DNA of 64,000 nt. Origin: an uncultured Gammaproteobacteria bacterium (lineage in GTDB: Bacteria > Patescibacteriota > Microgenomatia > Daviesbacterales > UBA10151). The notes under the pieces are model-generated. The model was not told the DNA's origin. It saw only the letters and a program-made list of their open reading frames with translations, and did not search any database. The position numbers and the translations under genes were made by a program. The stretch covers positions 70-64,069 of the forward strand of contig CAZKCV010000006.1 in the NCBI GenBank assembly GCA_964551605.1, in the 5' to 3' direction. Numbering within the stretch: the first letter of the stretch is position 1; every line of letters begins with the position of its first letter. Of this stretch, positions 1,876 to 58,360 are shown piece by piece.

Positions 1876-1908
1876 AACACGAGTAAAATTTTCCTAAAAA
1901 GAGTAGGT

Positions 1909-1929
1909 GCCAAGCTAGTCCACCTGGAA
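1909..1929 (-). terminator. REP-like hairpin immediately downstream of the glycoside hydrolase gene (terminator-like)
   Basis: CCACC-TGGAA-GGTGG inverted repeat 8 nt after the stop codon (minus strand). The T-run is weak. Confidence 0.3.
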
Positions 1930-1936
1930 GGTGGGC

Positions 1937-9154: not shown

Positions 9155-10123
9155 TTGCCGGAATATGGTATATATGCAAATATGTCAAAAGAAGCGCTGC
9201 TTTTTCCGGGTCAGGGGATTGCCACTAAGTGGATTTTAGAATATTATAAAAAAATTGCTGTCGAGGCTCCTGAACTGACTCATTCTTATATCTCCCTAGT
9301 TCAGGATGCTTTAAATAAAATTCACGGCTCAAGAGCATATAATATCCAGTCTGCTCTGGTTGGCGAATCTCCGGAGCTTTTTGAAAGAACCGAATTTTAT
9401 CAGCCCGTTGTTAGTGCCTTAAGTTTGGTCGGTAATGCATTTAGTTATGCGGGTTTAAATGCAGAATATATAGCCGGTCATAGCCTGGGAGAATGTACCG
9501 GCGTAATTGCGGCAGCCGGGATGTCAGAAGAAGAAGGTTTAAATTTCATCGGCTGGCGGGGATTATTCATGCAGCAAGCTGCAGATAGAACCCCCAGTGG
9601 TTTAATAAATGTGACAGGTTTAAATCCTGAAAAAATAGCAACATTGTGCCGGGGTATGAATGGCAAACCGCGGGCTGCCGTGGCTTTAAAAAATGCCCCC
9701 CCGGCAGTAGTGTTGGGATGTTCTAAAGAATATATTCCTGACTTGGTTCAGCAAGCTACCGAAGCCGGAGCCATAGCAGTAACCGTTTTAAGTGTAGCTG
9801 CTGCTTTTCATACGCCTTTTATGGAAGAGGCAGCAGAAAATTTAGCAGAAAAGTTACCGGAATATAATTTTCAAAGATTAGAAGTCGCCGTAATAGCCAA
9901 TTTAAACGGTGAGTCCGTGAAGAAAGGAAATATCTATCCCCGGGAAAATCTCGTTAACAGTCTGACCAAACCCGTTGAATGGATGGCCACTATGGAATTT
10001 CTCAAAAACAAAGGGGTTGAAACATACAGAATAGAAGGACCCGGGAGCACCTTAAAACAGCTATGCACTTTCAATGGTATTCCCAAATCTCAAATCCGGG
10101 GAACATTTGGAAAGTTTATTTGA
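9155..10123 (+). CDS. fabD: ACP S-malonyltransferase-like acyltransferase
   Basis: 'FPGQG' and active-site 'GHSLGE' motifs. Confidence 0.7.
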   Translation: MPEYGIYANMSKEALLFPGQGIATKWILEYYKKIAVEAPELTHSYISLVQDALNKIHGSRAYNIQSALVGESPELFERTEFYQPVVSALSLVGNAFSYAGLNAEYIAGHSLGECTGVIAAAGMSEEEGLNFIGWRGLFMQQAADRTPSGLINVTGLNPEKIATLCRGMNGKPRAAVALKNAPPAVVLGCSKEYIPDLVQQATEAGAIAVTVLSVAAAFHTPFMEEAAENLAEKLPEYNFQRLEVAVIANLNGESVKKGNIYPRENLVNSLTKPVEWMATMEFLKNKGVETYRIEGPGSTLKQLCTFNGIPKSQIRGTFGKFI

Positions 10124-10131
10124 TAGCTAAT

Positions 10132-11148
10132 TTAACGGGCTCTATCAATTCTTCCCCAATTAGAGAGCCATTCCCGGGGTTGGTCTGGTCTTTTAATACA
10201 GAAAATGACCGGATAGGAGTAGCTAAAATCAGTTAATGATTGTCTCTGTAAGTTATCGATCAATCCCTTTTTAGTAATCCATTCTGGTACCGAAAAAATC
10301 CACGTTTCGCCGCTTTCTGTATTTTTCCTGGAAAACCTTAGCCGGCCACTTCCCCACTGCCGTCGGTCGCGGGAATGGGATATTTTTGCAACAAAATGGG
10401 AATCTGGAACCTCAGTCCAACCTGAATTATTTATTTTGGTGGCATTCGCATAAGACCTAAGAAAAGTATTAGTACTATCAGCCGGTTCTTTAAATCTTGT
10501 AGCGCCTACTTTTGCCCCTACCAAGTTTTCCCACTGAAAATAAGTTGTCAGGTAGGTGGGCTCTGTATCAAAACGCCCTTTCCTCGTTTCATACGTACCT
10601 GCTTTGGCATCTTCTAAATCTGCCAATGGAAACTCAGCATATAAAGGGATTTGAGAGTTAGTCTCGTATTCCATTGAAGCCAGCCTCGGTACACGGGATA
10701 CAGGATTGTTAGTTGTTACACTGATTCCAGCCCGCATACTCTGCATATCAGCCAGTTGGTCTTTAACGCAAAGAGGATGTAATAACATGGGGGCAAAATA
10801 ACCTGCCCCGATGCAAATTTGTAACCCGTCAGAGTTATAAGTTACTTCCCCATAAATCAAAGTATTTCCAAGTTGATGTAAGGTTCGCCGGAGTTTTAGC
10901 CCATATGTTTGATTATAGTCCACTTGAACCCTGGTGCCTGAATCCCTATCTTCTGCCTCAAATACAGCTTTTACGTCGCCATAGTCGCTATCTTTTCCGA
11001 GTTTGATTAATTTATAAGGAATTTCCTTTTTTCCGGTTTCAGGATGCTTCCAGGTGAGAGAATTAGTTAATTCAGGTGCGGATTCACCATTAAAAGCAGC
11101 CTGGAATTTTGCAATATTGGCTTCCCGCTCAGCTAATGCTTTAGACAT
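10132..11148 (-). CDS. hypothetical protein (338 aa)
   Basis: Long ORF with coding-like composition; no motif recognised. Confidence 0.4.
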   Translation of the reverse strand: MSKALAEREANIAKFQAAFNGESAPELTNSLTWKHPETGKKEIPYKLIKLGKDSDYGDVKAVFEAEDRDSGTRVQVDYNQTYGLKLRRTLHQLGNTLIYGEVTYNSDGLQICIGAGYFAPMLLHPLCVKDQLADMQSMRAGISVTTNNPVSRVPRLASMEYETNSQIPLYAEFPLADLEDAKAGTYETRKGRFDTEPTYLTTYFQWENLVGAKVGATRFKEPADSTNTFLRSYANATKINNSGWTEVPDSHFVAKISHSRDRRQWGSGRLRFSRKNTESGETWIFSVPEWITKKGLIDNLQRQSLTDFSYSYPVIFCIKRPDQPREWLSNWGRIDRAR

Positions 11149-16076: not shown

Positions 16077-16703
16077 CTATCTCTTTTTTCCAGCCCTTTT
16101 AGGCTTTATTTCACTCATGTATGCCGGACCGTATTTCCGGGAAGGCTCATGTCCGGTAATTTCTTCCGAAGTCCTGACAACTCTTAAGTTATCAGCTTCA
16201 AAATCACTCATAATCCTGCTTGCGGTATCTTCTCCTTCTTCTTCCTGTGTAGGGACAGCCACCAGGATGCCTCCTTCATTTATTCTTCTTTCATAAACCC
16301 CGGCTTCCTCATCAGTTAAGCCAAAGGTAGAGCCAATTGCTCCTAAAATACCTCCTGCTAAAGCTCCGGTAGCTGCGCCGGATGCAGTGGTAGCTGCTAC
16401 TCCGGTTAAGCCCAAAGCAGCGGCAATTGGTCCGCCGATAAATAACACTCCCAAACCAGGGATAGCAAAAGCAGCTACCAAGCCGGCAATTCCGCCGATG
16501 ACTGCCCCGGTGGTGGCGCCGCCTAAGGTGGCTCCGATGACTTCTCCGCCGCTATCTTCTAAGCGGCGGGATGCCCCGGCACCCCTCATTATAATGGACA
16601 TTTCTTTGGGATTAAAGCCATGTGATTCCAGCTCGGCAATGGCATCCTCCGCCTTATCCTTCTCGGAGAAAACTCCTAATACAACGCTTGCCATCTTTTT
16701 CAC
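16077..16703 (-). CDS. general-stress-like protein (YflT/DUF1269-like N-domain plus glycine-zipper membrane segment)
   Basis: 'VVLGVFSEKDKAEDAIAELESHGF' N-domain followed by long GxxxG/A-rich hydrophobic stretches. Confidence 0.4.
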   Translation of the reverse strand: MKKMASVVLGVFSEKDKAEDAIAELESHGFNPKEMSIIMRGAGASRRLEDSGGEVIGATLGGATTGAVIGGIAGLVAAFAIPGLGVLFIGGPIAAALGLTGVAATTASGAATGALAGGILGAIGSTFGLTDEEAGVYERRINEGGILVAVPTQEEEGEDTASRIMSDFEADNLRVVRTSEEITGHEPSRKYGPAYMSEIKPKRAGKKR

Positions 16704-16734
16704 CTCCTCGTAGAAATCATAACGCAGCTGCGCC

Positions 16735-16986
16735 CTAGCTTGTCCTTCCGGACGCTGCGCGCCGTATCTTTTTTACTCTCCGCTGGGCAGCCTGCAGAGT
16801 TTCTGACACTTTTTCTCTGGCCATATCTACCGTGTGAAAGACTGCGTCCCGGGTCTTTTTATTGGATAAAATGGCAGTAGCTGCAGCAGCAACTCCTGCT
16901 CCCACTGCAGCACCGGCTAAACCGGCCATAATCGGATTCATGCCTTTTTTTACATTACCGGAAGTATTCTCTTCCCCGTCGTTCAT
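16735..16986 (-). CDS. YtxH-like small membrane protein (paralog of 54909..55157)
   Basis: Gly/Ala-zipper TM ('MAGLAGAAVGAGVAAAATAIL') plus a basic coiled C-terminus. Confidence 0.45.
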   Translation of the reverse strand: MNDGEENTSGNVKKGMNPIMAGLAGAAVGAGVAAAATAILSNKKTRDAVFHTVDMAREKVSETLQAAQRRVKKIRRAASGRTS

Positions 16987-17068
16987 CTTTTCTCACCCCC
17001 TTTCGTAAATATTAACAGCGGTTTATTAAAGATTAATCAAATTAAGGTAAGAAATAGATATGACCCCT

Positions 17069-17320
17069 TCAAGGAAATGTGGGAGCGGTTGATGAAGGGA
17101 TTGGTGCAATATCAGGTGAAAAAGAAGGGAATCCCGGGCCTCCGCCTACCCCGGGCTGGACTCCGCCCGGAGTCTGGTTATTAAGCTGCGCAGCATATAA
17201 GAATAATCCAACGATCGCCAGTACCGATACGGCTGACAAAAGCGAGAACCAAAAGGTCCTACTATCAGCCTGTTCCGTTGATTCACTTTTTCCGTATCTA
17301 TCCGCATACTTATCTTCCAT
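17069..17320 (-). CDS. small membrane protein, Pro/Gly-rich tail
   Basis: One TM; no motif recognised. Confidence 0.3.
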   Translation of the reverse strand: MEDKYADRYGKSESTEQADSRTFWFSLLSAVSVLAIVGLFLYAAQLNNQTPGGVQPGVGGGPGFPSFSPDIAPIPSSTAPTFP

Positions 17321-17385
17321 ATACCTGCCATTATAGGAACAAAAGTTTATAAACCATTCAAAAATCCGCTAGAAAACTGTAAGAG

Positions 17386-18060
17386 TTAGCTGAAGAATCT
17401 GTAGTGCAGATGTTGCTTCCTGGCCAGGAGCGGAATAGCAGAAAACCAGCCGAATAAAAAGCCTCCGACATGGGACAAAAAAGCTATTCCACCTTCATTC
17501 GGGCTCATCGGGAATGAGGCTAAACCGCTAAAAAACTGGGTGATAAACCAGAAAAAAAGTAAAAAGTAAGCCGGGATATCTACAATGGTGACAAAAAAGA
17601 AGATAAAAATTAAAGTTTTAATCCTGCTTCTGGGGAAAAGGGCAAAATAGGCTCCCAATACTCCGGCTACAGCGCCGGAGGCACCCAGCATGGGGATGGA
17701 AGCTGTGGGTGTGGCCAGGTATTGGGCCAGGCCGGCTACCACTCCGGAGGCCAGATAAAAAACCGGAAACAGGAAAAAGCCTAAACTGACTTCCACATTA
17801 TTGCCGAATACCCACAAAAACAGCATGTTGGAGATGATGTGGATAAAGCCGCCGTGCAAGAATTGACTGCTGATTAAGGGTAAGGCGGTCCGAAAATCTG
17901 CCAGGTCCAGTAGGACCGGAATAAAGGCATACTGGAGAATAAAACCTTCCGGGCTGGCAGCAGTCAGCTCCAGGTAAAAAATGTAAATATTGACTAATAT
18001 GATGGCCACTACCCAAAAAGGAAACCTGGATAATGCATTGGTATCTTTTAAAGGAATCAT
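17386..18060 (-). CDS. rhomboid-family intramembrane serine protease
   Basis: 'GASGAVAGVLGAYF' (GxSG) and 'HGGFIHIISNMLFLWVFG' rhomboid motifs. Confidence 0.75.
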   Translation of the reverse strand: MIPLKDTNALSRFPFWVVAIILVNIYIFYLELTAASPEGFILQYAFIPVLLDLADFRTALPLISSQFLHGGFIHIISNMLFLWVFGNNVEVSLGFFLFPVFYLASGVVAGLAQYLATPTASIPMLGASGAVAGVLGAYFALFPRSRIKTLIFIFFFVTIVDIPAYFLLFFWFITQFFSGLASFPMSPNEGGIAFLSHVGGFLFGWFSAIPLLARKQHLHYRFFS

Positions 18061-18182
18061 GTAGCAAAATTATATGAAGACAGGATCAAGGTATGATAAG
18101 AGCCCGGTAAGAGTAGTGTATAGTTTCATCCTTGCCCTATAGTTATTGATTTAGCACTAGCTTAATGGTATAATTATAGGCT

Positions 18183-18671
18183 ATGATAGATACACTTGAA
18201 TGTGCATATTTAGCAGTACCGAAACCTGAGAAGATGGTAAAACTTAAGGTACAAACATTAGAGGCTCTTCTCCAGCCATTTGTAACCTGGAGTAGCGAAG
18301 ATCCCGGTGTGATAGTCAATACCGGTCCTTTTAAGGTCAGGCGAACTTACTTTACAGTATTGGCTTCAAATTTCCACCTGATCCAGATGTTTCGTATGAT
18401 TGGTGGTCTCCAGCTTAATAGGGATGTTGATGCATTTATTGATCAATATTCCCAAAAACAGTTTGGGGGGGTTTTGACAACCCGGACAGATATTCAAAAG
18501 GCAGATGATTTGACGTTCAGAGTACTGAGCCAGGTAGATAAGGACTTATTACTCAGGGCTGCAAAAAGATGCAGAATATCTGATGAAAGAATGTATGAAA
18601 TTTTCTATAGTCAGGCAGAAAGAATTTCTGAGATTGGGATTTCCGGATTTGCCTCTGTAGTTGCTGCCTAA
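18183..18671 (+). CDS. hypothetical protein
   Basis: 162-aa ORF. Confidence 0.35.
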   Translation: MIDTLECAYLAVPKPEKMVKLKVQTLEALLQPFVTWSSEDPGVIVNTGPFKVRRTYFTVLASNFHLIQMFRMIGGLQLNRDVDAFIDQYSQKQFGGVLTTRTDIQKADDLTFRVLSQVDKDLLLRAAKRCRISDERMYEIFYSQAERISEIGISGFASVVAA

Positions 18672-18672
18672 C

Positions 18673-19477
18673 TTTAGCTTTACACAGCTTTACACCCTCC
18701 GGGTGTTTTAGGTTGACACCCTTTCTCTATTATGTGTAAGATATGTTTATGGCCACACTTAGAAAGTTGGTGTTTCGTGAGGGTGAAGTCTATCATGTTT
18801 TTAACAGAGGGATAGAGCGAAGAACTACCTTTAGTGAGAAAAGAGAACTCGCAAGGATGCAGAAGCTGGTCAAATTTTATAGGCACAAAGATACTCCGGT
18901 CAGGTTTTCCCAGGTTATACAGAAACCTGAAGAGACCAGAGAGAAGTTACTGGCTGCTCTTTATAAGAGTGAAAGGGCAGTAGATATCCTAAGTTACTGC
19001 CTGATGCCCAATCATTTTCATTTTTTGCTTAAACAAAACACAGACAAAGGGATTTCCTCTTTTATATCTAATATCACAAATGGCTATACTAAATATTTTA
19101 ATACAAGATATGAAAGGATGGGTCCCCTATTTGAAGGTGTTTTTAAGGCAGTTCATATTGAAAGCGATGAGCAGTTGGTTCATGTCTCCAGGTACATCCA
19201 CCTAAACCCAGTGGTTTCCGGTGTGATACCGGATAATGAGCTTGAAAGTTACCCTTGGTCATCCTATCCGGAATATTTATCTTTATCCAACTTGGAAATA
19301 TCGCAGACAGATTTAATTTTAAGCATGTTCAAAACGATAAAAGCCTACCAGGAATTTGTTAACAATCAAATAGATTACGGTAAACAGCTGGAAGTTATCA
19401 AACATCTTACTTTAGAATGATATTCTAATTGAAGAATAGGTGTAAAGCTATATCACCCTCCGGGTGTAGCCTTAGTT
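18673..19477 (+). mobile_element. IS200/IS605-like minimal element (Y1 transposase flanked by subterminal hairpins)
   Basis: The left end carries the 48-bp block TTTAGCTTTACACAGCTTTACACCCTCCGGGTG..TTAGGTTGACACC. The right end carries GTGTAAAGCTA plus the same CACCCTCCGGGTG hairpin, then CCTTAGTT. Confidence 0.55.
18743..19420 (+). CDS. tnpA: Y1 HUH transposase (IS200/IS605 TnpA / RAYT-like)
   Basis: 'CLMPNHFHFLL' HUH motif and 'VSRYIHLNP' catalytic Tyr motif. Confidence 0.7.
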   Translation: MFMATLRKLVFREGEVYHVFNRGIERRTTFSEKRELARMQKLVKFYRHKDTPVRFSQVIQKPEETREKLLAALYKSERAVDILSYCLMPNHFHFLLKQNTDKGISSFISNITNGYTKYFNTRYERMGPLFEGVFKAVHIESDEQLVHVSRYIHLNPVVSGVIPDNELESYPWSSYPEYLSLSNLEISQTDLILSMFKTIKAYQEFVNNQIDYGKQLEVIKHLTLE

Positions 19478-21234: not shown

Positions 21235-21777
21235 ATGGAAATTACGACCCTGGCAGGCGGATGTTTTTGGTGTACGGAGGCTGTTTTTAGGCGGCTGAAG
21301 GGAGTGATGCAAGTTACTTCAGGCTATGCCGGAGGGAGGCTGGAAAACCCCTCCTATAACGAAGTGTCTATGGGTAATACCGGCCATGCCGAAGCTATCC
21401 AAATTGAATTTGATCCTAAGGTTTTAAACTTTAATAAATTATTGGAAATTTTCTGGGCGATCCATGATCCGACTACCCCAAACCGTCAGGGTTCAGATGT
21501 GGGCATCCAATACCGGTCAGCTATTTTTTACCACAGCCAAATTCAAAAAAGAACGGCTGAACTGTCGAAAAAGCGGGCAGAAAAATCCGGGGAAATTAAC
21601 GGTAAGATTGTGACGGAGATTAAACCTTTTACCAAATTTTACCCGGCTGAAGATTATCACCAGAACTATTATGAGAGAAATAAGAATTTCAACAGATACT
21701 GTTTGTTAGTCATAGATCCTAAAATAGGAAAGTTATTGGAGAAATTTAATAAGGAGGTCAAGCCGGAGTTTAAATGA
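21235..21777 (+). CDS. msrA: peptide methionine sulfoxide reductase A
   Basis: '[11 protein letters not shown]' active-site motif. Confidence 0.85.
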
Positions 21778-22160
21778 AAAACTTAAGTGATATCAGGAAA
21801 AAATTAACACCGGAGCAGTACAATGTTTGTTTCTTAAAAGGGACCGAGCCGCCTTTTTCCGGAAAATATACCAAAAATTTTAAGCCGGGAATGTATAATT
21901 GCGTAGTCTGCGGTACTCCTTTGTTTTCTTCAGAGGCTAAGTTTGATTCCCCTACCGGCTGGCCTTCTTTTGATAAACCAGCTGTCAATAAAAATATAGC
22001 TTTTGAAGATGATTATTCAATGGGGGTTCACAGGATTGAAGTAATATGTAAAAATTGCGGCTCCCACCTGGGACATGTCTTTGATGACGGCCCAACCAAA
22101 ATCGGAAAACGCTTTTGTATCAACTCATTAGCCTTAGATTTTGTTCCCGGAAAAATTTAA
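21774..22160 (+). CDS. msrB: peptide methionine sulfoxide reductase B
   Basis: Two CxxC pairs and '[13 protein letters not shown]'; overlaps msrA by 4 nt. Confidence 0.85.
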
Positions 22161-22350
22161 CAGAGTTATTACACTACCATTATATAAAACTTATACTTAA
22201 GGTTTATTATGATAATCAAACTCAGGTTGGGGGTAGGAAAAACTAAAGTAACGTAAAGTTATTGAGTTTTTCAAGAAACGGCGGGAGAATGATAAAATTT
22301 TTAACGATCCTTTAAGTTTCTTGATCCTACCCTACAACTGAGCTTTTTCA

Positions 22351-23391
22351 TTATTTGAGGTATTTATTAAAAAACTCCACTGAACGGTTTAAGGCAACAT
22401 TAAGATTCCCGGAAATATTATGGTCATCTCCTTCATAAGTAAAAAACTCCACCTCGTTTCCGGCCTCTTTCATGGCTTCGTTTAACCTTTCACTAAAAAG
22501 TACCGGGACTTCTTCATCTCCGGTACCGTGATGCAGCTGCAACGGCCCGGAAATATCTTTTACAAAAGCTATCGGTGAAATCGATTTCCAAAACCCGGGG
22601 TTTTGATCCGGATCCCCGTACTTATCAATCAAAGCCTGACGGCCCGGCCTTCTGAATGCCTGTTCTCTTTCTGAAAGCATAAACGGCCTGGACCTGCCCC
22701 AGTTTTTTATCATGTCTTCATAAGAAGCTACCACCCCGGCCCAGATTATTCCGGCTTTAATATCTTTTGAAACTACCATTGAACGAAGTGTTAAGCTGCC
22801 GCCCATTGAGTGTCCCCACATGCCGATTCGATTTGTGTCAACCACAAATCGTCCTGAGCCTGTCGAAGGATCTCGTAATTTTTTGATTGAAGAAACGGCA
22901 TTCAAAACATCCACAGTATAAGCTGTGGAATAATAGCCCCCTTCGGGGTTTCCTTCTGACGTGCCATGGCCCCGGTAATCGGGTTTTAGGACTACATATC
23001 CGTTGCCGGAAAAAGCATCCGTGTAAGTCACATAACGGCCGGTGGTTGTGTACTGGGCCGGTGGAATATAACCATGGTTAAAGATAATTGCCGGCCACCC
23101 GCCAACCGGCGGGTGGCCTTCAGGAACAGTTAATGAAGCATTAATTTTTAAGCCCCCGGATTGATATGAAGCCAAATATTGCCGGTAATTGCTGCCCGGT
23201 TCCAGTTCTTCTTCAATGGTAATTTCACTGCCTGGGTAGCTTTTCTTTCTCATCTCTGTGATTTGTAAAGGATGCGGATCGCCGAGGGTACTTACTTTTT
23301 CAGATTGCGTGGGTGGATCCTGGTTTTTCTGAAAAAATATCCCCGTTCCCAAAAGGCTCAGTATCCCAAAAAGGAAAATGATTTTCTTCAT
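22351..23391 (-). CDS. secreted alpha/beta-hydrolase (S9/DLH-like esterase/peptidase)
   Basis: Signal peptide; 'GMWGHSMGG' nucleophile elbow. Confidence 0.6.
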   Translation of the reverse strand: MKKIIFLFGILSLLGTGIFFQKNQDPPTQSEKVSTLGDPHPLQITEMRKKSYPGSEITIEEELEPGSNYRQYLASYQSGGLKINASLTVPEGHPPVGGWPAIIFNHGYIPPAQYTTTGRYVTYTDAFSGNGYVVLKPDYRGHGTSEGNPEGGYYSTAYTVDVLNAVSSIKKLRDPSTGSGRFVVDTNRIGMWGHSMGGSLTLRSMVVSKDIKAGIIWAGVVASYEDMIKNWGRSRPFMLSEREQAFRRPGRQALIDKYGDPDQNPGFWKSISPIAFVKDISGPLQLHHGTGDEEVPVLFSERLNEAMKEAGNEVEFFTYEGDDHNISGNLNVALNRSVEFFNKYLK

Positions 23392-25986: not shown

Positions 25987-26925
25987 ATGGATATTGTAAC
26001 CATTATTTTAGTAGTCGGAGGGCTGGTTTTATTCGAAACAGTTTCTTCCATTGATAACGCAGTTATTAATGCCGAGGTTCTTTCCACCATGAGCAGGAAA
26101 GCCAGAAGATGGTTTCTGCTCTGGGGACTGCTGATTGCAGTTTTTCTGCTTCGGGGAGCTTTGCCCTGGGCTATTGTCTGGGCTGTTAATCCGGGTTTGG
26201 GTCCGATTGGATCATTTACTGCTGCTTTAAGTTCTGACCCGGCGGTGGCAGAGGCCATTGAGGGCTCCAAGCACATCCTGCTTTCGGGTGGAGGCATATT
26301 TTTAGTTTTTTTGTTTTTCCATTGGCTGTTCCTGGAATCGAAAAACTTCGGCCTGCGGGGTGAGCGGTTTTTCCAGCGGCAGGGTGTCTGGTTTTATGCA
26401 GTAGTGTCTCTGATTTTGGCAGGAGTAGTCTGGTTTTCCATAAATAAGGATCCGTTCATGGCTTTCGGAGCAGTCTTAGGTTCAACTGCTTTTTTTATTA
26501 CCCACGGGTTTAAGGAGAATGCCAGACAGGCTGAAGAACAGATGCTTCACAACAAAGATACCGGATTGTCTGACATGAGCAAGATTTTTTACCTGGAAGT
26601 GATAGATGCGACTTTTTCCATTGATGGTGTGGTAGGAGCCTTTGCTTTTACCCTGTCCGTGCCCTTAATTTTGCTGGGAAACGGCATTGGGGCTTTGGTA
26701 GTCAGGCAACTGACGGTTTCCAATATAGACAGGATCAAGAAATATATTTACCTAAAAAACGGTGCTATGTACTCTATCTTTTTCTTAGGATCAATTATGC
26801 TGGCAGACAGCTTTGGACTGCATATCCCAGCCTGGTTGTCTCCGGTGGTGACTGCGGTGGTAATTGCTTATTTCTTCCTAAAATCAAAACGATCGCTGGT
26901 TGACACCTTGAAGGTGTCAACCTAA
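25987..26925 (+). CDS. TerC/DUF475-like integral membrane protein
   Basis: 'ETVSSIDNAVINA' resembles the TerC 'E..LSVDNA' motif; multi-TM. The last 8 codons lie inside a REP-like hairpin. Confidence 0.4.
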   Translation: MDIVTIILVVGGLVLFETVSSIDNAVINAEVLSTMSRKARRWFLLWGLLIAVFLLRGALPWAIVWAVNPGLGPIGSFTAALSSDPAVAEAIEGSKHILLSGGGIFLVFLFFHWLFLESKNFGLRGERFFQRQGVWFYAVVSLILAGVVWFSINKDPFMAFGAVLGSTAFFITHGFKENARQAEEQMLHNKDTGLSDMSKIFYLEVIDATFSIDGVVGAFAFTLSVPLILLGNGIGALVVRQLTVSNIDRIKKYIYLKNGAMYSIFFLGSIMLADSFGLHIPAWLSPVVTAVVIAYFFLKSKRSLVDTLKVST

Positions 26926-26960
26926 CCCACCCCCGGGGTGGGATACGCACACACCGTAGG
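26898..26960. repeat. REP-like composite: GGTTGACACC-TTGAA-GGTGTCAACC hairpin plus CCCACCCCCGGGGTGGG hairpin
   Basis: Read directly. It provides the C-terminal codons and stop of the preceding gene. Confidence 0.6.
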
Positions 26961-26965
26961 GGATA

Positions 26966-28660
26966 TCACCAGAAGTAATTATTTCTGACTTCAATTCCGA
27001 ACAGGGCATTTCCCAGCGGGCTTTGCGGGAAAAGGGCTAACCCGGCCCTGGCGAATTTTTCAGCAGCTTCCGTATTTCCTGTCTGTCCCAGGAAAAGTGA
27101 TAGCCTAAGATATGAAAGATAAGAAGATCTTGCCCCTCCGGGGTAAAAATCAAATTGATAGTTAGCCGGATCTAATTTTGATAAGTCAATAGACTCCAAG
27201 GTGTCCCCTTGAAAGGCCAGAGCATCATTTTTTACCAGAACTATCATAAAATCATCCAAATAAACTGTTTTCCAATCCGGGTTTTTGATAATGGAAACTA
27301 AAAAGGCTTTACCCCAGGGGGTTTGGTCAGTATGGGAAAAGATAATAGTCCTAAAGCCGATTTTTTCGTCAAGCTGCTTAAACTTTTCAGGTTCATATTG
27401 GGCTGGGATATAAACTTGCTGGAAAAATTCCTTCGGGTATTCCCCTGGTCTTCCATCCACAAAGATCCGGTATTTTGGCCAGCCACGGTAGGTAATGTAG
27501 CTTCCGATATCAAAATTATTAAAAACAGGCTGCGATAAATTATTTTTTAGGGCAAAATCAAGGGCGCCTTTACCATTTTCTTCGAATTGAAGCAGCGGCC
27601 TGGTGCTGCTGCCGGTATATTTATAATAATCCCCGTTTAGGTAAAAAAAACTTTCCAGAAGCAGCAACGGTACCGTCACCCAGACCAGCATTTTAAGAGG
27701 GCGGGCTGGACGGAAAGCTCCAAAATTTTCCAGCACTGCCGGGAGTGAGATTAAAGCCAAATAAGGAAAGCTCCTGACATTCATCAAAGCCAGTACCATG
27801 CCTAGACCGGCCAGGCCCAGATTCTTTATTGTTAATCCTTTCTTGAATAGGGCTACACAAACTGAAAGTACAATAATGGCTATGGCAATCTTGACAAACA
27901 GGAAATTAGGATCCCGGAAGTTAATACTTTCGAGAAGAAACATGGTTTGGTTTTCCACAATGGTATAGCCGTAGTTTTGGTTAAAGGTTAAAGGATTCAG
28001 GAATCCTTTGAGGCCGCTGGGATTAATTAAGCTGGCCCCAACCGATAGTCCAAAAATTATCCCCAGTATTTTTAGCTTTACACCCTTGGGGTGTAATCGA
28101 AAGTATTGGTACCCCAGGTGAATCAGGTAAATAGCCTGGAGAAATAAACCTAACATAAAATAGATATGGCTATTGACCCAGATTAGCTGGACAACCGGCA
28201 GGGCAAAAATTAGCTTGGTTTTTGTCTTCTCAAATTTACTCAGGATATAAAGAGTAAGTCCGGTAAAAAGAAAGCTTAATATTTCCGGGCGGAAGTCCGG
28301 CCGCTCCCGTAAAGTATGTAAGAAAAGAAAACCAATAGGTAAAAGCAGATATTGGTTTTTAGGTGTGGTTTTTAAGACAAACCAGACAGCCAGCAGGATA
28401 ATGACCACTTTTAAAATAAGTAATGCCTGCAGGCCGATTGTCTGCTGGCCCAAAAAGACTAGAACCTCAAACAGCCAGTGGCTATTAATAAAGGGAAAAT
28501 CAGGATAAGTGTAGGAAAACAGGTTGGTTAAAGGTACGGTTTTGGTTTGTAAGATAATTTCCCCTAATTTTAAGTGCCGGCCTAAGTCCTGGTTAAAGGA
28601 ATCATCGGTTCGGAAAAGGAAAGAAAAAACGAAAAATAACAGGAGAATTTTAATCCACAT
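26966..28660 (-). CDS. polytopic membrane protein (GT-C-like; possible C-terminal TPR)
   Basis: 564 aa, more than 10 TM helices and a soluble C-terminus. Confidence 0.4.
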   Translation of the reverse strand: MWIKILLLFFVFSFLFRTDDSFNQDLGRHLKLGEIILQTKTVPLTNLFSYTYPDFPFINSHWLFEVLVFLGQQTIGLQALLILKVVIILLAVWFVLKTTPKNQYLLLPIGFLFLHTLRERPDFRPEILSFLFTGLTLYILSKFEKTKTKLIFALPVVQLIWVNSHIYFMLGLFLQAIYLIHLGYQYFRLHPKGVKLKILGIIFGLSVGASLINPSGLKGFLNPLTFNQNYGYTIVENQTMFLLESINFRDPNFLFVKIAIAIIVLSVCVALFKKGLTIKNLGLAGLGMVLALMNVRSFPYLALISLPAVLENFGAFRPARPLKMLVWVTVPLLLLESFFYLNGDYYKYTGSSTRPLLQFEENGKGALDFALKNNLSQPVFNNFDIGSYITYRGWPKYRIFVDGRPGEYPKEFFQQVYIPAQYEPEKFKQLDEKIGFRTIIFSHTDQTPWGKAFLVSIIKNPDWKTVYLDDFMIVLVKNDALAFQGDTLESIDLSKLDPANYQFDFYPGGARSSYLSYLRLSLFLGQTGNTEAAEKFARAGLALFPQSPLGNALFGIEVRNNYFW

Positions 28661-33144: not shown

Positions 33145-33218
33145 GCGGGTGTAATTCACCGGTAGAATGTCACTTTTCCAAAGTGAACGTAAGGGGTCCG
33201 ACTCCCCTCACCCGCTCC
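33145..33218 (+). tRNA. tRNA-Gly (anticodon TCC), CCA encoded
   Basis: Acceptor GCGGGTG/CACCCGC, anticodon loop TTTCCAA, T-arm AGGGG-TCCGACT-CCCCT, discriminator T plus CCA. Confidence 0.75.
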
Positions 33219-33250
33219 AGACGAATTTTATCGAACTGACAAATTTTAGC

Positions 33251-33279
33251 TTCAAAAAATTGCTGAATTTTGCTATAAT
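33251..33279 (+). promoter_or_regulatory. consensus-like sigma70 promoter (TTCAAA-17-TGcTATAAT)
   Basis: Read directly; it fires rightwards, antisense to the small ORF 33331..33495. Confidence 0.5.
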
Positions 33280-33330
33280 CTAGGCTTATAACGTATTACC
33301 TTAACAGGAATCGAACTAGCCTTAATTTTA

Positions 33331-33495
33331 TTATTTCTCATCTTGCTCAACTTCTTCAAAATCTCCCATCCACTTTGACCCATAGACATGTTGCATAACA
33401 GCACAAGCTAACAAATATACAACTTCCTGTATGTCTTTTAGCTCTTCTTCCGAAGCATTAGGGTAATATTTTTTAATTACTTCCAAAGGTAACAT
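33331..33495 (-). CDS. 54-aa acidic protein (paralog of 35201..35365); not in the supplied ORF track
   Basis: Translates to MLPLEVIKKYYPNASEEELKDIQEVVYLLACAVMQHVYGSKWMGDFEEVEQDEK. Strong SD (AAGGAGG) 8 nt upstream; about 75% identical to copy 2. Confidence 0.45.
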   Translation of the reverse strand: MLPLEVIKKYYPNASEEELKDIQEVVYLLACAVMQHVYGSKWMGDFEEVEQDEK

Positions 33496-33557
33496 AATAA
33501 ATTATCAGCTCCTCCTTTTTTGACTTTTAAGCCTACAGAGACTATAATTCAGCCAAG

Positions 33558-34391
33558 ATGAGTTTTCTTGAGAGATTGTTGCATGGTATACAGGCAAGAG
33601 AAGAAATAGAGCGGAAAGCACAGATCTCAACAGCCGAGAAAGCTGAACTTGAAGCTAAAGCGGTTATTGAGACAAAAGAAAGTGATGTAAGAGATGAAAA
33701 TGCCAGACAATCAGTAATAAAGCAGGAAATAAAAGACGCTCTAGAAAGATATTCTGTAAAAGAGAGACTAGAGGCAATACGTGATGGTGTTTGGAAAGTG
33801 GGAGAGGTTAAGCCAAACGATAGAACCAATGACGGTCTCTACTTAATACATACATACCCAGCAGCAGTTCCAATTATGGTGAGAGGTACATGGACTGTGC
33901 CAACTCACGAGTCGCCCGCCTCTGGTAGTGGAGGCCCTAAAGAATGGACTTATAGCGGGTGGACGCACAATGGTTTTTTCAAAGAAGGAAGAAGGTTTGA
34001 CGCTGTAGTTATTAGAGCTCGAGCTACAGCCCACAAATCACCAGGCTCATCAAAGTTTACTGCAACCTCATCAAATCTTGTTTTTGATGCTGGTGGTGGA
34101 TGGTATGGATTAGAGCCAAAAGATAATTTTGATTGGCATTATGTACCGATGGAATATAGAGGTAGTTTTACGGAAAATTATAGGCACTTTCATGGATACG
34201 GGGAAATTGGCATTAATTCTCCTTCATATTTAGAAATGGTGATAACTGATTACTGCCACGATATAATTACAAACAAAAGAATTTCAACAGCCTATTACAA
34301 AATAACTGAACATAGCAGACTACCTCTACAAGCGGAGGCTGAAGAACAAAATAATTTAATAGGATTAAGACAAGCTGGGAAAATAAGATAA
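33558..34391 (+). CDS. hypothetical protein (coiled-coil N-terminus plus Gly/Trp/Tyr-rich globular domain)
   Basis: 277-aa ORF; N-terminus paralogous to the next gene. Confidence 0.45.
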   Translation: MSFLERLLHGIQAREEIERKAQISTAEKAELEAKAVIETKESDVRDENARQSVIKQEIKDALERYSVKERLEAIRDGVWKVGEVKPNDRTNDGLYLIHTYPAAVPIMVRGTWTVPTHESPASGSGGPKEWTYSGWTHNGFFKEGRRFDAVVIRARATAHKSPGSSKFTATSSNLVFDAGGGWYGLEPKDNFDWHYVPMEYRGSFTENYRHFHGYGEIGINSPSYLEMVITDYCHDIITNKRISTAYYKITEHSRLPLQAEAEEQNNLIGLRQAGKIR

Positions 34392-34422
34392 TAGCAGCTT
34401 TGAACACATTAAATTAAACCAT

Positions 34423-34956
34423 ATGGGATTTATAGAAAAATTAAAACAAGAAAAAGAAGCAATAGAGCAAGGGAAGGCAATCCAGCAGGCTAAATTAACT
34501 GAGGCAGAAGCACTTCATCAACAAAGAAGAGAGCAGGCCGCTACCTTTCGCACGGAAAGTGGAATCGGGGATCTAGCATTAACAGCTGCTGATCTTCTCA
34601 AAAAAGTAAGGTTTCCAGATGCTTCATATAGTAACGGCCAAGCTATTCAAAATCAATCAATTACAGAAGTTGATAGCGTTTTTGATAGTATCAGATGGGG
34701 TAAATTATCAAGAACTAGTTATATGAGATCTCCTCGCAAGGGCAATTATTATGTTAGTATTGCAACAAGACCTAATGGACAAATCGTTTTTTATGCGCAG
34801 AAAGAAATTTTAATACCAGAAACCGACTGGCGAAAGGACAAGGATCTTCTGGAACGCACTTTAGAACAAGCTTTGAATTTGCCAGGCGAAGCGTATGAGC
34901 CCGAAAAGGAAATTAACTATGGACCTTATATACCGCCTCTAAAGCCGAATTTTTAG
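34423..34956 (+). CDS. hypothetical protein (N-terminus paralogous to 33558..34391)
   Basis: 'MGFIEKLKQEKEAIEQ' versus 'MSFLERLLHGIQAREEIE'. Confidence 0.45.
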   Translation: MGFIEKLKQEKEAIEQGKAIQQAKLTEAEALHQQRREQAATFRTESGIGDLALTAADLLKKVRFPDASYSNGQAIQNQSITEVDSVFDSIRWGKLSRTSYMRSPRKGNYYVSIATRPNGQIVFYAQKEILIPETDWRKDKDLLERTLEQALNLPGEAYEPEKEINYGPYIPPLKPNF

Positions 34957-34967
34957 TGAATGAATTT

Positions 34968-35093
34968 CTGATATGCATACTTATACAGTTTTTAGTTCTA
35001 AGGCGTAGACTAAATCTGGTAACAGACCGTCAGATAGGAATAATCTGATGAATTCTGGCAGTCTGGCTAAGATCACGTCAGGAGCTCCATACG
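34968..35093. repeat. noncoding segment X, duplicated at 36570-36707 (about 85% identity)
   Basis: Shared strings include GAATTTCTGATATGCATA..., GACCGTCAGATAGGAA and GAATTCTGGCAGTCTGGCTAAGA..GTCAGGAGCTCCATACG. Confidence 0.6.
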
Positions 35094-35215
35094 AATTTTA
35101 TTGAAATAACAAACTTTAGCTTCAAAAAATTGCTAAAATTTGTCGAAATTTAATCCTATAACATAGGACCACAACGGGAATCGAACTAGCCTTAAGCTTG
35201 TTATTTCTCTTCTAG
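35094..35215. repeat. noncoding segment Y, duplicate of 33219-33345 (follows tRNA-Gly in copy 1)
   Basis: ACGAATTTTAT..TTAGCTTCAAAAAATTGCT...GGAATCGAACTAGCCTTAA conserved in both copies. Confidence 0.6.
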
Positions 35216-35365
35216 GACGGGTTCATCAAAATCTCCCATCCATTTCGACCCATAAAATTCTTGCATAACAGCACATGCCAATAAATAAACAACCTCTTGG
35301 ATATCTTTTAGCTCTTCTTCTGAAACATCGGGATAGTATTTTCTTATTTCTTCCATAGGTAGCAT
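35201..35365 (-). CDS. 54-aa acidic protein (paralog of 33331..33495)
   Basis: The track ORF 35201..35401 is trimmed to the Met preceded by AAGGTGGTGA. Sequence MLPMEEIRKYYPDVSEEELKDIQEVVYLLACAVMQEFYGSKWMGDFDEPVLEEK. Confidence 0.45.
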   Translation of the reverse strand: MLPMEEIRKYYPDVSEEELKDIQEVVYLLACAVMQEFYGSKWMGDFDEPVLEEK

Positions 35366-35463
35366 CAACAAATCACCACCTTTTCTCCAATTACTAATCA
35401 CTTATTTTCTTCAACTATAGCTAATTATCGAAAGCTTCTAAAATTTGCTATACTGGATTCAGT

Positions 35464-36381
35464 ATGGAAAACAGTCCGGAAATGCCAGTTCAATCTTCTA
35501 CTATGCAAGGTCAGGCTGATATATCTACTCTGTTACCACCACAACAACAGCAAACACAACCGCTTTATTTCAAACACAGTGGCTTTATCGTAAGACTTTT
35601 TGCCCTTATTGTTGATGTAGTTATTATTTTATTAATTACACTTCTGTTAAACCTTATTCTTCAGTTAGCCACTGGACAGTCATTAAATTACAGTAAAGGT
35701 TCCCTATTTCAATTTCTGGTAACACTTATTTCCCTCATATATTCAATCACTTTTGTTGCGCTATATGGTGCTACTCCAGGCAAAATGCTCCTTCGTCTTA
35801 GGATTGTAAATACAAATTATCAGAAAGTTAGCTTCTTTCAAGTATTGAAGCGTGAAACAGGAGGCAAGATACTTTCAGGATTAGTTTTTAATCTCGGTTA
35901 TTTATGGGCTGCCATTGATAACAAAAAACAGGCTTGGCATGATAAAATTGCTAAAACCTACGTTATCCATATAGAACCCATTAGCTATCAGGAATATTTA
36001 AAGCAACAGGAAAAAGGCAAAATAGGTTCACTTCCTTATGTTTTAATCTTCGCAGGAGCAGCAGAAGTAATCTTTATATCATTCTTTGCATTTTCAGTTG
36101 TGAGACAGCTAACAACACTTTACGAAACCATGGAAACAGGTGGGTATAATCCTTTAATTACATACTTAATGTTAGGAATAATAGGATTGAGTTGTTTTGC
36201 TCAAATTATATGGGGCAGTATATTATGGTCTAAGAAAAAGGCACCAGAAACCATAAGTCAGAGTTCTATCAAAACTGCTAAAGTTCTACTAATACTCGGA
36301 GCAACTTTATTTTTCTTACTAATTCCATTCCTTGTTTTGTCTGTTATTCTTCCAATTTACAAATTAACAACTTCGTTTTAA
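35464..36381 (+). CDS. RDD-family membrane protein with C-terminal extra TM domain
   Basis: 'WHDKIAKTYVI' RDD-domain C-terminal motif; TM helices on both sides. Confidence 0.5.
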   Translation: MENSPEMPVQSSTMQGQADISTLLPPQQQQTQPLYFKHSGFIVRLFALIVDVVIILLITLLLNLILQLATGQSLNYSKGSLFQFLVTLISLIYSITFVALYGATPGKMLLRLRIVNTNYQKVSFFQVLKRETGGKILSGLVFNLGYLWAAIDNKKQAWHDKIAKTYVIHIEPISYQEYLKQQEKGKIGSLPYVLIFAGAAEVIFISFFAFSVVRQLTTLYETMETGGYNPLITYLMLGIIGLSCFAQIIWGSILWSKKKAPETISQSSIKTAKVLLILGATLFFLLIPFLVLSVILPIYKLTTSF

Positions 36382-36569
36382 CTAACTTAAGAATACACAA
36401 GATTTTTAGCATCACCAGATATTCAAAAACTGAAAATGTGTCGTACAAGTTTGAGTATATTAATGTATAATTATTTTTACCGAATGATCCTTGTGGTGAA
36501 AGTACCTTACTATTAGGGAGCTAATGTTGACATCATAATCGATGATTCATCTTGGCCACGAGGATCGAA

Positions 36570-36707
36570 TTTCTGATATGCATATTTATGCATTTTTTAG
36601 ACCTAAGGCATAGACGAAGTCAGGTAGTAGACCGTCAGATAGGAACATTTTGAAGAATTCTGGCAGTCTGGCTAAGACCTCGTCAGGAGCTCCATACGGA
36701 ATACCCT
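36570..36707. repeat. noncoding segment X, copy 2
   Basis: See 34968-35093. Confidence 0.6.
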
Positions 36708-44300: not shown

Positions 44301-44348
44301 TTTAGCTTTACACAGCTTTACACCCTCCGGGTGGTTTAGGTTTACACC
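44301..44348. repeat. 48-bp copy (46/48) of the left-end block of the 18673 element
   Basis: TTTAGCTTTACACAGCTTTACACCCTCCGGGTGGTTTAGGTTTACACC, 20 bp downstream of the tRNA-Arg 3' end. Confidence 0.7.
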
Positions 44349-44368
44349 TATTCTTTATTTAAGATTTG

Positions 44369-44441
44369 CGCCCCTGGAGGGATTCGAACCCCCAATCTAA
44401 CGCTTAGAACGCGCTCGCTTCATCCATTAAGCTACAGGGGC
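44369..44441 (-). tRNA. tRNA-Arg (anticodon TCT)
   Basis: Reverse complement folds: acceptor GCCCCTG/CAGGGGC, D-arm GCTT-AATGGATG-AAGC, anticodon loop GTTCTAA, T-loop TTCGAAT. Confidence 0.7.
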
Positions 44442-53908: not shown

Positions 53909-54877
53909 ATGAATTTCTGGCAAAAGCTCAAAAAGCCTTTTTTTATTTTAGCCCCTATGGATGGGGTAACTGATACGGTTTTCCGGCAGATTGTAGCCTC
54001 TGTGGGTAAACCGGACGTGTTTTTAACCGAATTTGTACCGGTTGATGCCTTAATGTCGAAGCACTCTGAGAGGGCTTTGGAAACCCTAAAATTTACAGAA
54101 TCTGAAAGGCCGATGGTAGCCCAAATCTGGGGGTCTGAACCGGAGAAGTTTTACAAAGTAGCCCAAATGCTTGCCCAAATGAAATTTGATGGCATAGATA
54201 TCAATATGGGCTGTCCGGATAAAGCTGCGGTAAGAAAAGGCGGCTGTTCTGCTTTAATTAAAAATCCCCAACTGGCTGTAGAGATTATTGAGGCCACCAT
54301 CAAAGGAGCCGGTGGTTTGCCTGTCAGTGTGAAAACCAGGATCGGTTTTAGCAGCATTGATACTGAAAACTGGGTTACCTCCCTGCTGCAAACCCCTATT
54401 TCAGCTTTAATTCTGCACCTTCGGACAGTCAGGGAAATGTCCAAACCTCCGGCTCATTGGGATGAAATCAGTAAAGCCGTTCTGGTCAGAAATAAAATCA
54501 AATCCAAAGCCCTCATTATTGGCAATGGGGATATAAAAAGCCTTAAAGAGGCCAGAGATAAGTGTCTGGAATACGGAATAGACGGAGTAATGATAGGCCG
54601 GGGTATTTTTGAAAATCCCTGGGTTTTCAATGAAAAAATAGATATAGAGAAAGTTTCCCGGGAAGATAAAATAGCTTTGTTTGTCAGACACCTGGAACTA
54701 TATAAAACAGTCTGGGGGCAAAAGAAAAACTTTGCCAACATGAAAAAATTTGTTAAAACCTATGTCAAAGGCTTCAGGGAAGCCACCGAAGTCCGGGAAG
54801 ATTTAATGCGGACTAAAAGCATTGATGAATTAATCCAAAAATCCCAACTAACCCACCCCCGGGGTGGGTTAGGTTGA
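53909..54877 (+). CDS. dus: tRNA-dihydrouridine synthase
   Basis: 'ILAPMDGVTD' plus a TIM-barrel FMN-site Cys. The C-terminus 'LTHPRGGLG*' is encoded by a REP-like element. Confidence 0.8.
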   Translation: MNFWQKLKKPFFILAPMDGVTDTVFRQIVASVGKPDVFLTEFVPVDALMSKHSERALETLKFTESERPMVAQIWGSEPEKFYKVAQMLAQMKFDGIDINMGCPDKAAVRKGGCSALIKNPQLAVEIIEATIKGAGGLPVSVKTRIGFSSIDTENWVTSLLQTPISALILHLRTVREMSKPPAHWDEISKAVLVRNKIKSKALIIGNGDIKSLKEARDKCLEYGIDGVMIGRGIFENPWVFNEKIDIEKVSREDKIALFVRHLELYKTVWGQKKNFANMKKFVKTYVKGFREATEVREDLMRTKSIDELIQKSQLTHPRGGLG

Positions 54878-54885
54878 CACCGTAC
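54849..54885. repeat. REP-like element (CCCACCCCCGGGGTGGG plus TTAGGTTGACACCGTA) overlapping the dus stop
   Basis: Read directly. Confidence 0.6.
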
Positions 54886-57479: not shown

Positions 57480-57489
57480 GTTTTAATCC

Positions 57490-58273: not shown

Positions 58274-58360
58274 GGAGATTTGTTGCTGGAGGTTTTAGGC
58301 CTTACTTTTTTGTTACCCAATATTGATATAAACCTTATCCTTATCCTGTAGCATTTCTTT

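Follow-up and report, generated by a model that had tools for sequence, protein, structure and literature searches.

Proteins of the HUH/Y1 superfamily are classified by their motifs. The transposases of IS200 (subclass 1.1) carry the motifs Y---Q and DH[VI]H and consist of a core of about 150 amino acids (aa), whereas the motif Y---NP defines TnpA-Y1 class 2, which comprises proteins resembling the tyrosine transposases associated with repetitive extragenic palindromes (REPs), RAYTs (PMC6006769 Table 1). Within class 2, subclass 2.1 is characterized by the signature NH[YF]H, FQ (or W[EQ]), Y[IV]HLNP, and an SS tail, and has a median length of 238 aa (PMC6006769 Table 1). Subclass 2.1 equals Bertels Group 1 (PMC5581495) and is largely the same as the TIRYT proteins of Di Nocera (PMC3733652). 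Copies of IS200 within one genome are on average 99.4% identical (PMC6006769 Table 1), whereas few, old, diverged, and syntenic copies are the pattern described for RAYT-like genes (PMC5581495; PMC6006769). The 16-mers flanking Bertels Group 1 genes occur about 12 times (PMC5581495), and both intragenic REPs (PMC3733652) and the 'double foot' REPs of subclass 2.4 (PMC6006769) are known. Patescibacteria were outside the coverage of these surveys (PMC3733652, PMC6006769, PMC5581495), and among the papers searched, none mentions RAYTs in connection with Patescibacteria or with the Candidate Phyla Radiation. Here we analyze a Y1/HUH gene bracketed by hairpin repeats at positions 18673-19477 of a 64,000-nucleotide stretch of a Patescibacteria genome (contig CAZKCV010000006.1), the whole of which is referred to as the window.

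The feature at 18673-19477 is probably a domesticated gene for a class 2 Y1 nuclease, flanked by its cognate hairpins in an arrangement similar to a REPtron or TIRtron and not to IS200/IS605. The evidence comes from the architecture of the locus, its conservation under selection, its synteny, the co-variation of protein and flanks among relatives, and the solo copies of the flanking repeats. A sequence-only reading had described the feature as an IS200/IS605-type element, either a minimal IS200-like unit or a domesticated RAYT. The Y1/HUH protein and the hairpin-flanked architecture of that reading were borne out. The assignment to IS200/IS605 had to be abandoned, given the Y---NP and NHFH motifs, the length of 223 aa, the 49% identity between the copies, and the syntenic orthologue. 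Its second option, the domesticated RAYT, is favored by the class 2 motifs, the purifying selection, and the inverted flanks.

The copy-1 gene encodes a class 2 Y1 protein

The Y1/HUH nuclease gene (copy 1; 18749-19420, + strand) encodes a protein of 223 aa. An alternative ATG at 18743 gives the 225 aa of the sequence-only reading; ATG 18749 is the likely start, because nearly all close homologues are 223 aa long and start with MAT. The open reading frame (ORF) 18743-19420 (+) contains the motifs HFHFLL and RYIHLNP, as had been noted. The protein matches Pfam Y1_Tnp (PF01797) with 40.4 bits against a cut-off of 23, and its sole match in NCBIfam is the REP-associated tyrosine transposase model NF047646 REP_Tyr_transpos (50.8 bits). 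The family comprises 470 full-length clusters at 50% identity (E<=1e-30), and the residues H89, H91, Y149, N153, P154, and W170-S-S172 are invariant across 20 aligned homologues. The motifs of the copy-1 protein are NHFH, LFEG, YIHLNP, and WSS, and those of a second Y1 protein encoded in the window (copy 2) are NHFH, LFQS, YIHLNP, and WSS. The copy-1 protein is thus a member of class 2 of the HUH/Y1 superfamily. Inspection of its motifs against the published table indicates that it is most like subclass 2.1 (Bertels Group 1, TIRYT), with which it shares the motif signature and the length class of about 220-240 aa.

An AlphaFold model built from the 20-sequence alignment (pLDDT 85.9, pTM 0.84) has the HUH motif on the strand formed by residues 89-96 and Tyr149 on the helix formed by residues 140-156. 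The best PDB match identified by Foldseek is 4er8_A, the E. coli TnpA-REP in complex with a REP hairpin (E 9e-7, TM 0.70 on target), followed by the TnpA proteins of IS608 and ISDra2 (E ~5e-4 to 1e-3). The similarity to TnpA-REP was found through the predicted fold only, since a PDB sequence search with the window protein returned nothing at E<=1. The E. coli protein (a RAYT, also called YafM; subclass 2.2; 4ER8) has 16% sequence identity to the window protein and shares its Y---NP motif. The window protein is about 60 residues longer: additional residues are inserted between its first helix and the HUH strands, and its helical tail is extended. The C-terminal tail is helical in the AlphaFold model. 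Residues 153-223 have no Pfam match even at E<=10, and the C-terminal domain of TIRYT and subclass 2.1 proteins, which resembles a helix-turn-helix (HTH) or DnaA_C domain (Bac_DnaA_C, HTH_23, or HTH_28), is undetectable in the window protein. The N-terminal extension matches no Pfam domain at E<=10, and a PHROGs search with the protein gave nothing useful.

Hairpins and inverted feet bracket the gene

The left end of the locus begins with an outer tag composed of TTT and two tandem copies of AGCTTTACAC (18673-18695, +), the second of which overlaps the 5' arm of the left hairpin, ACACCC-TCC-GGGTGT (18692-18706, +). The hairpin is followed by the inner left foot TAGGTTGACACC (18709-18720, +), which contains a -35 box TTGACA at 18713-18718; the terminal CACCC of the left foot is a repeat of the hairpin 5' arm. 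On the other side of the gene, the inner right foot TAGCTTTACACC (19439-19450, -; GGTGTAAAGCTA just inside the right hairpin) is an inverted copy of the left foot, and the right hairpin is CACCC-TCC-GGGTG (19454-19466, +). The copy-1 hairpins are direct repeats, with the loop TCC on the + strand at both ends, whereas the adjoining feet are inverted copies of each other, a detail that the sequence-only reading lacks. The one-strand polarity of the hairpins is the same as in IS200/IS605 elements, which also have the HUH/Y1 fold and the logic of subterminal single-stranded DNA (ssDNA) hairpins in common with the window locus. Inverted feet distinguish the locus from those elements. The flanking of the gene by partly self-complementary inverted repeats is a property of TIRYTs/TIRtrons (PMC3733652), and inverted cognate hairpin flanks also characterize the REPtron of E. 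coli TnpA-REP, as do dispersed solo or paired repeats and vertical inheritance.

The end motifs described in the sequence-only reading were all recovered. The hairpin sequence CACCCTCCGGGTG is exact on both sides of the gene, at 18693-18705 and 19454-19466, and occurs once more at 44321-44333, always on the + strand (three found against 0.01 expected). The motif TAGCTTTACAC, which had been reported in opposite orientations at the two ends, is located at 18675-18685 (+), at 18685-18695 (+, with one mismatch), and at 19440-19450 (-), and was counted seven times in the window, where 1.1 were expected. The additional motifs TTAGGTTGACACC (left end) and GCCTTAGTT (right end) are at 18708-18720 and 19468-19476, respectively. 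Folding of the ends as ssDNA, a check proposed with that reading, gave -6.9 kcal/mol (z -3.0) for the left end and -5.5 kcal/mol (z -2.1) for the right end. The copy-1 hairpins are modest, with stems of 5-6 bp, and their significance comes from recurrence and conservation, not from energy. Both are terminator-like by score. A search of Rfam at the gathering threshold identified tRNAs only and no known RNA families over the elements. The copy-1 gene is neighbored by an unknown ORF of 162 aa and by a gene for a PMT_2 glycosyltransferase; no tnpB adjoins it, as had been stated, nor is there one in the gene tables of the loci L001-L006.

The outer left tag is not kept in the orthologous locus L002, where a different 12-nucleotide (nt) tandem, two copies of ACCCATACACCC, is in the same place. 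Both orthologous loci have a short tandem duplication immediately 5' of the left hairpin, spanning its 5' arm (L002 4915-4942, window 18676-18695). The difference between the duplicated sequences suggests recurrent local duplication at the hairpin foot.

The gene and its flanks are conserved in an orthologous locus

The best homologue of the copy-1 protein, P0001 (92% identity), is encoded in L002, a locus on a 770-kb Daviesbacteria contig. The right neighbor of the gene is the same as in the window, and L002 is collinear with the window from 12.0 to 25.7 kb except for two indels. Comparison of copy 1 with its orthologue gave a synonymous divergence (dS) of 0.52 and a ratio of non-synonymous to synonymous divergence (dN/dS) of 0.072, which, with the collinearity, points to vertical inheritance of the copy-1 gene, a gene of the single-copy type, under purifying selection. 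From the left hairpin to the ATG, 56 of 58 nt are identical to L002, and the right foot and hairpin are also kept. The identity of 56 of 58 nt at a dS of 0.52 implies that the non-coding flanks are more constrained than synonymous sites.

The two indels are an extra block of 2.6 kb in the window (16099-18690), which contains stress-protein-like ORFs, a rhomboid gene, and the unknown 162-aa ORF and ends at the left hairpin, and an extra msrA-msrB pair to the right of the PMT_2 gene (21235-22351). Homology with L002 begins exactly at 18691. The 2.6-kb indel was considered as a product of Y1-mediated rearrangement and was dropped as evidence, because the detection of homology resumes at the first conserved sequence anyway.

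Related loci combine a conserved foot with locus-specific hairpins

A scan of one genome per species identified at least 573 relatives, of which the best 80 loci were analyzed. Almost all of these loci belong to Microgenomates-type Patescibacteria (Davies-, Levy-, Gottesman-, Curtiss-, Shapiro-, Woese-, Beckwith-, and Amesbacteria). Inverted repeats were sought in the 160 nt upstream and 140 nt downstream of each gene, and a significant upstream/downstream pair was present in 59 of the 78 loci having enough flank (z>4 against shuffles). The upstream part of the repeat is located at about -80 to -20 and its downstream counterpart at most 50 nt past the stop codon. The repeat unit consists of a hairpin with a CACC/GGTG core and a locus-specific outer stem and loop, followed on the gene side by TAGCTTGACAC(C). 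The conserved tag of the family is the inward-pointing foot, TAGSTTGACACC. The protein groups with Y1 proteins, and the flanks of its related copies carry conserved hairpins, the two points on which the sequence-only reading had staked its interpretation. Conservation of a CACC-core hairpin and a TAGSTTGACACC foot in a Patescibacteria-wide clade is unlike what has been published for subclass 2.1.

Perfect hairpins with an identical stem on both sides were found in 46 of the 80 loci. The polarity of the loop in perfect-hairpin loci is direct in 24 and inverted in 15, and this mixture indicates that the loop is probably not a recognition determinant. The end of the foot copies the 5' arm of the hairpin above expectation (0 of 2000 permutations), so the foot resembles a second, truncated unit of tag and 5' arm. 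In some loci (L053, L024, and L011), both flanks are full double-foot palindromes of the type GGTGnCAAnnTA-hairpin-TAGnTTGACACC. The two flanks of one locus match each other better than they match those of other loci: own pairs score 32.9, as opposed to 16.1 across loci, and in 40 of the 80 loci the own partner was the best of 80 (kinship uncorrected). The identity of the proteins correlates with the similarity of the upstream elements (Mantel test, 0 of 500 permutations), likewise with kinship uncorrected.

Solo elements are dispersed at a low level

The window was scanned with a hairpin-plus-foot model built without the window's own sequences. The scan identified 1906-1936 (-), 18692-18720, 19439-19466 (-), 26913-26942 (-), 44321-44348, 45900-45942 (both strands), and 54851-54881, and the 64-kb window contains six to eight such elements, where about one is expected. 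The most complete solo element corresponds to the whole left end of copy 1, with both tags, the hairpin, and the foot up to TAAGAT, without a gene (44301-44365, +; 59 nt, 92%). It abuts the 3' end of a tRNA-Arg gene (44368-44441, -) and includes the copy-1 tandem tag, which L002 does not keep. A tag with a hairpin variant, TTTAGCTTTACACCC-TTG-GGGTGT (28071-28097, +; ssDNA fold z -4.65), is in frame within a 564-aa ORF (26966-28660, -) and is translated as RLHPKGVKLK. The 564-aa ORF has no Pfam match, and BLASTP between two large membrane-protein ORFs did not locate the insert.

The remaining elements are at the ends of genes or within them. Double-foot palindromes are located at 26896-26957 (no strand assigned), between convergent genes and overlapping the 3' end of a DUF475/TerC gene, and at 45898-45955 in the dinB gene. 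A hairpin with TAGGTTGACACC, of the same palindrome type as 26896, overlaps the stop codon of the Dus gene (53909-54877) at 54848-54884 (+). A CCCACCCC/GGGGTGGG hairpin with a foot on either side is common to the palindromes 26896, 45898, and 54848, whose folding energies are about -13 to -21 kcal/mol. A gene for a glycoside hydrolase has at its 3' end a solo element resembling the right end, AGGTGCCAAGCTA-GTCCACC-TGGAA-GGTGGGC (1904-1936, -). Just upstream of this element, a 259-nt intergenic region contains a perfect 45-nt tandem duplication (CAACCGACCAAAGGGAGGTTAAAGGGCCAAACTTGTTTAGCCCGG x2.1; 1785-1878) with no Rfam match.

In the loci of relatives, eight cognate solo hairpins were found beyond the gene flanks in 640 kb from 56 loci, against none in the cross-locus control, a frequency of roughly one per 80 kb. 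A metagenome scan with the left-end pattern identified one contig only, which is unrelated and carries a gene-less copy of the left-end type. The dispersal of the short elements is real but low. It appears nearer to the approximately 12 occurrences of Group 1 16-mers than to the hundreds of classical REPs: the REPs of E. coli number in the hundreds, and repeats of the window type appear to be far fewer. Diverged, low-copy paralogues and probably also a modest copy number of the flank repeats are shared with TIRYTs/TIRtrons. The possibility that the scattered copies of TAGGTTGACACC are mobile promoters was rejected, because the solo copies are at the 3' ends of genes or inside genes and lack rightly spaced -10 boxes.

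In-frame insertions at two hot spots in dinB

The dinB gene of the window (45562-46860, -) encodes DNA polymerase IV (Pol IV) and contains the double-foot palindrome ACGGTGTGCGGCTA-TCCCACCCC-T-GGGGTGGGA-TAGGTTGACACCGT in frame (45898-45955, no strand assigned). The palindrome folds at -19.8 kcal/mol (z -6.9) and encodes ...YGVNLSHPRGGIAAHR..., residues that are absent from the closest solved Pol IV structure and from the orthologues P0122 and P0128. At the DNA level, the insert measures 63 nt when compared with two empty orthologues. It follows the sequence CWYR.A, and other orthologues encode translations of other hairpin elements at this site (HLEGG, HPRGV, HLRGG, and others). A second hot spot, after SIDECFLE, contains insertions in many orthologues. 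The Daviesbacteria orthologues range from 397 to 485 aa (alignment A2; L087, L088) because of in-frame insertions at the two hot spots. The empty and differently filled orthologous sites suggest that the short elements move or are replaced.

The elements 26896, 45898, and 54848 resemble the 'double foot' REPs of subclass 2.4 in having a tag on each side of one hairpin. Known intragenic and double-foot REPs differ from them in the tag (GT[AG]G there, TAGSTTGACACC here) and in the subclass of the associated protein, and the occupation of one dinB site by different element variants in different orthologues is unlike intragenic REPs. Rickettsia palindromic elements are also short, are in frame in protein-coding genes, and are tolerated in surface loops.

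A predicted leaderless promoter overlapping the left foot and the cis-regulatory alternative

A sigma-70-like promoter, TTGACA-18 nt-TAAGAT (18713-18742, +), precedes the copy-1 gene, and 6 nt separate the end of its -10 box from the ATG at 18749. Such a promoter could be scored in 54 of 82 loci, of which 46 have a -10 box ending 5-8 nt ahead of the start codon, as opposed to one of 246 random control positions. A Shine-Dalgarno-like motif is present in two of the 82 loci. The spacing between the -10 box and the ATG, together with the scarcity of Shine-Dalgarno motifs, predicts leaderless mRNAs throughout the family. In the window, the leaderless geometry extends over 18713-18749 in copy 1 and 58199-58232 in copy 2. 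The upstream hairpin would be outside the predicted transcript of the gene, which favors a role at the level of DNA. The right foot contains an inward promoter-like match, TTTACA-18-TATCAT (19417-19446, -), from which the 3' end of the Y1 gene could be transcribed in antisense.

An alternative is that the flanks are only cis-regulatory, serving as promoter, insulator or terminator, and antisense promoter, while the solo copies are leftovers of deleted paralogues and the Y1 protein acts on other ssDNA. The upstream foot has a perfect -35 box at the right leaderless distance in most loci, and TTGACA is better kept there than in the downstream foot; a promoter, however, leaves the matching inverted copy past the stop codon unexplained. 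The terminator-like scores of the hairpins and the inward promoter-like match in the right foot could be accommodated, but not the locus-specific co-variation of the two hairpins or the double-foot palindromes on both sides of the gene in L053, L024, and L011. The solo element at 44301 takes in the promoter region of the left end, but the solo copies have no adjoining remnants of Y1 genes, and the in-frame dinB elements with empty orthologous sites are also unaccounted for. We consider the purely cis-regulatory explanation unlikely.

Diverged paralogues and the insertion-sequence alternative

The second Y1/HUH nuclease gene of the window (copy 2; 57524-58198, -) encodes a protein of 224 aa that is 49% identical to copy 1. 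Its upstream flank TCCAACACCGGGTGTTAGTTACGTTCCAACCTAAGGATTA (58237-58276, -; 40 nt) is 85% complementary to 57487-57526, the downstream flank (-), which is an inverted copy of it (z 13.5). The flanks of copy 2 differ from those of copy 1. A tblastn search found no further gene copies or remnants within the 64-kb window. The L002 contig contains at least two more paralogues (L035 and L060) with 45-50% identity. Several related loci (L028, at 9574-10352; L046, L054, L082, and L014) contain, at most 6 kb from the first gene, another diverged Y1 paralogue, and each paralogue is flanked by hairpins of its own. The pattern of few, diverged, and syntenic copies in the window is RAYT-like and the opposite of that of IS200.

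According to the insertion-sequence alternative, the locus is an autonomous minimal IS200-like element, in which TnpA moves the 0.8-kb unit as an ssDNA circle and the hairpins are the left and right ends. The Y1/HUH fold is indeed related to that of the IS608 and ISDra2 TnpA proteins, but the Y---NP and NHFH motifs depart from the IS200 signature, and the length of the protein is 223 aa instead of about 150. The end hairpins share a loop on the same strand, as is expected of IS200/IS605 ends, whereas the feet are inverted repeats and tnpB is missing. The presence of at least two family members per genome is common, but the paralogues are 45-50% identical, compared with the IS200 mean of 99.4%, and the duplicates in the window are solo ends only, none of them gene-carrying. 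The block common to the window and L002 is bounded exactly by the hairpin feet (18691 to ~19468), and the 2.6-kb indel abuts the left hairpin; against these boundaries stand the syntenic position of the gene across a dS of 0.52 and a dN/dS of 0.07. In comparison with IS200/IS605, the locus thus differs in its Y and HuH motifs, its larger protein, its lack of tnpB and, within the window, of near-identical copies, its inverted feet, and its syntenic gene under purifying selection. The copy-1 locus is not an IS200/IS605 insertion sequence, as judged by its motifs, size, copy identity, and lack of tnpB, and there is very little chance that it moves as an autonomous unit of this kind.

The conservation data effectively rule out a decaying, non-functional transposase relic accompanied by chance palindromes, for which nothing specific speaks apart from the modest hairpin energies. 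The ORF is intact, the catalytic residues are invariant across the 20 aligned homologues, the dN/dS is 0.07, the family has 470 clusters (50% identity, E<=1e-30), and the motif counts are far above chance.

Weighing the domesticated-nuclease reading

Several observations weigh against the interpretation of the locus as a domesticated, RAYT-like nuclease gene with cognate hairpins. The NF047646 score of 50.8 is below the equivalog cut-off of 80. The canonical REP tag GT[AG]G is absent at the 5' foot of the hairpins, which are preceded by CTTT or TATAT on the + strand and by AAAA or GCTA on the - strand; a scan of L002 for GTRG was uninformative. The motif GGGGWSAS, which is found in many TIRYT repeats, is absent from the flanks of both genes and occurs at chance frequency, and no REP-like sequences were found next to subclass 2.1 genes in the published survey (PMC6006769). 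The copy-2 hairpins are thermodynamically weak when folded as ssDNA. The co-variation statistics carry no correction for phylogenetic relatedness. The window contains no gene cognate to its commonest solo type (CCCACCCC...GGGGTGGG), and solo copies of the copy-1 hairpin are few there (44321 and the variant at 28082). A strict scan combining a position weight matrix with a hairpin found only six solo elements in 826 kb of the relatives' loci, and this small number tempers the analogy with REPs. Finally, the binding, cleavage, and mobilization of hairpins by the window protein are attributed to it by analogy with the precedents of E. coli TnpA-REP and IS608.

Based on the domesticated-nuclease reading and these precedents, the following mechanism can be proposed. 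The protein, as an endonuclease and ligase of ssDNA, would be made from a leaderless mRNA whose -35 box is inside the left foot. It would recognize its cognate hairpin and foot when these are single-stranded, for example, at replication forks. Cleavage beside the hairpin would be carried out by Tyr149, with His89 and His91 holding a metal ion, and the DNA would then be rejoined. The gene itself would stay in place, and the activity may occasionally copy, move, or replace short hairpin elements. These elements would end as solo copies elsewhere in the genome, some of them in frame inside genes.

Other repeats in the window

The window also contains long non-coding blocks. The pairs 33203-33495/35073-35365 and 34962-35093/36567-36698 are 79-87% identical and constitute three repeats. 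The blocks begin at the 3' end of a tRNA-Gly gene (33145-33219), and each is upstream of an unrelated gene, encoding an unknown protein, an RDD protein, and a Fic/DOC-MarR protein. The blocks in 33203-36698 could represent integrated elements in tandem or a regulatory region that is repeated.

Implications for Patescibacteria and RAYT-like enzymes

The copy-1 locus is an undescribed example of a known arrangement, in a Patescibacteria bacterium with a tiny genome. As a tentative extension, for which the odds are rather against us, we speculate that Microgenomates might carry a large, undescribed subclass-2.1-like Y1 clade. Its members would be present as several diverged paralogues per ~1-Mb genome and would, unlike published members of subclass 2.1, have cognate hairpins, with a foot that doubles as the leaderless -35 box, and their double-foot solo elements would repeatedly colonize the same in-frame sites of host genes, such as those in the translesion polymerase gene dinB. 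RAYT and TIRYT enzymes are widespread, and their cellular role and repeat mobilization are known mostly by inference. Subclass 2.1 (Group 1), the largest group, was reported to be without recognizable REPs, whereas here, protein, hairpins, and foot co-vary among about 80 relatives.

The maintenance of several such genes under purifying selection in genome-reduced Patescibacteria argues for a function at the level of the host. The label now given to these genes in annotation is 'transposase'; counts of IS200 insertion sequences should exclude them. The solo copies and the filled and empty sites, such as those in dinB, can be compared with each other and provide concrete substrates for biochemistry. 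If the speculated Microgenomates clade is real, it would offer a tractable natural system in which to study the movement or replacement of short palindromes by RAYT-like enzymes.

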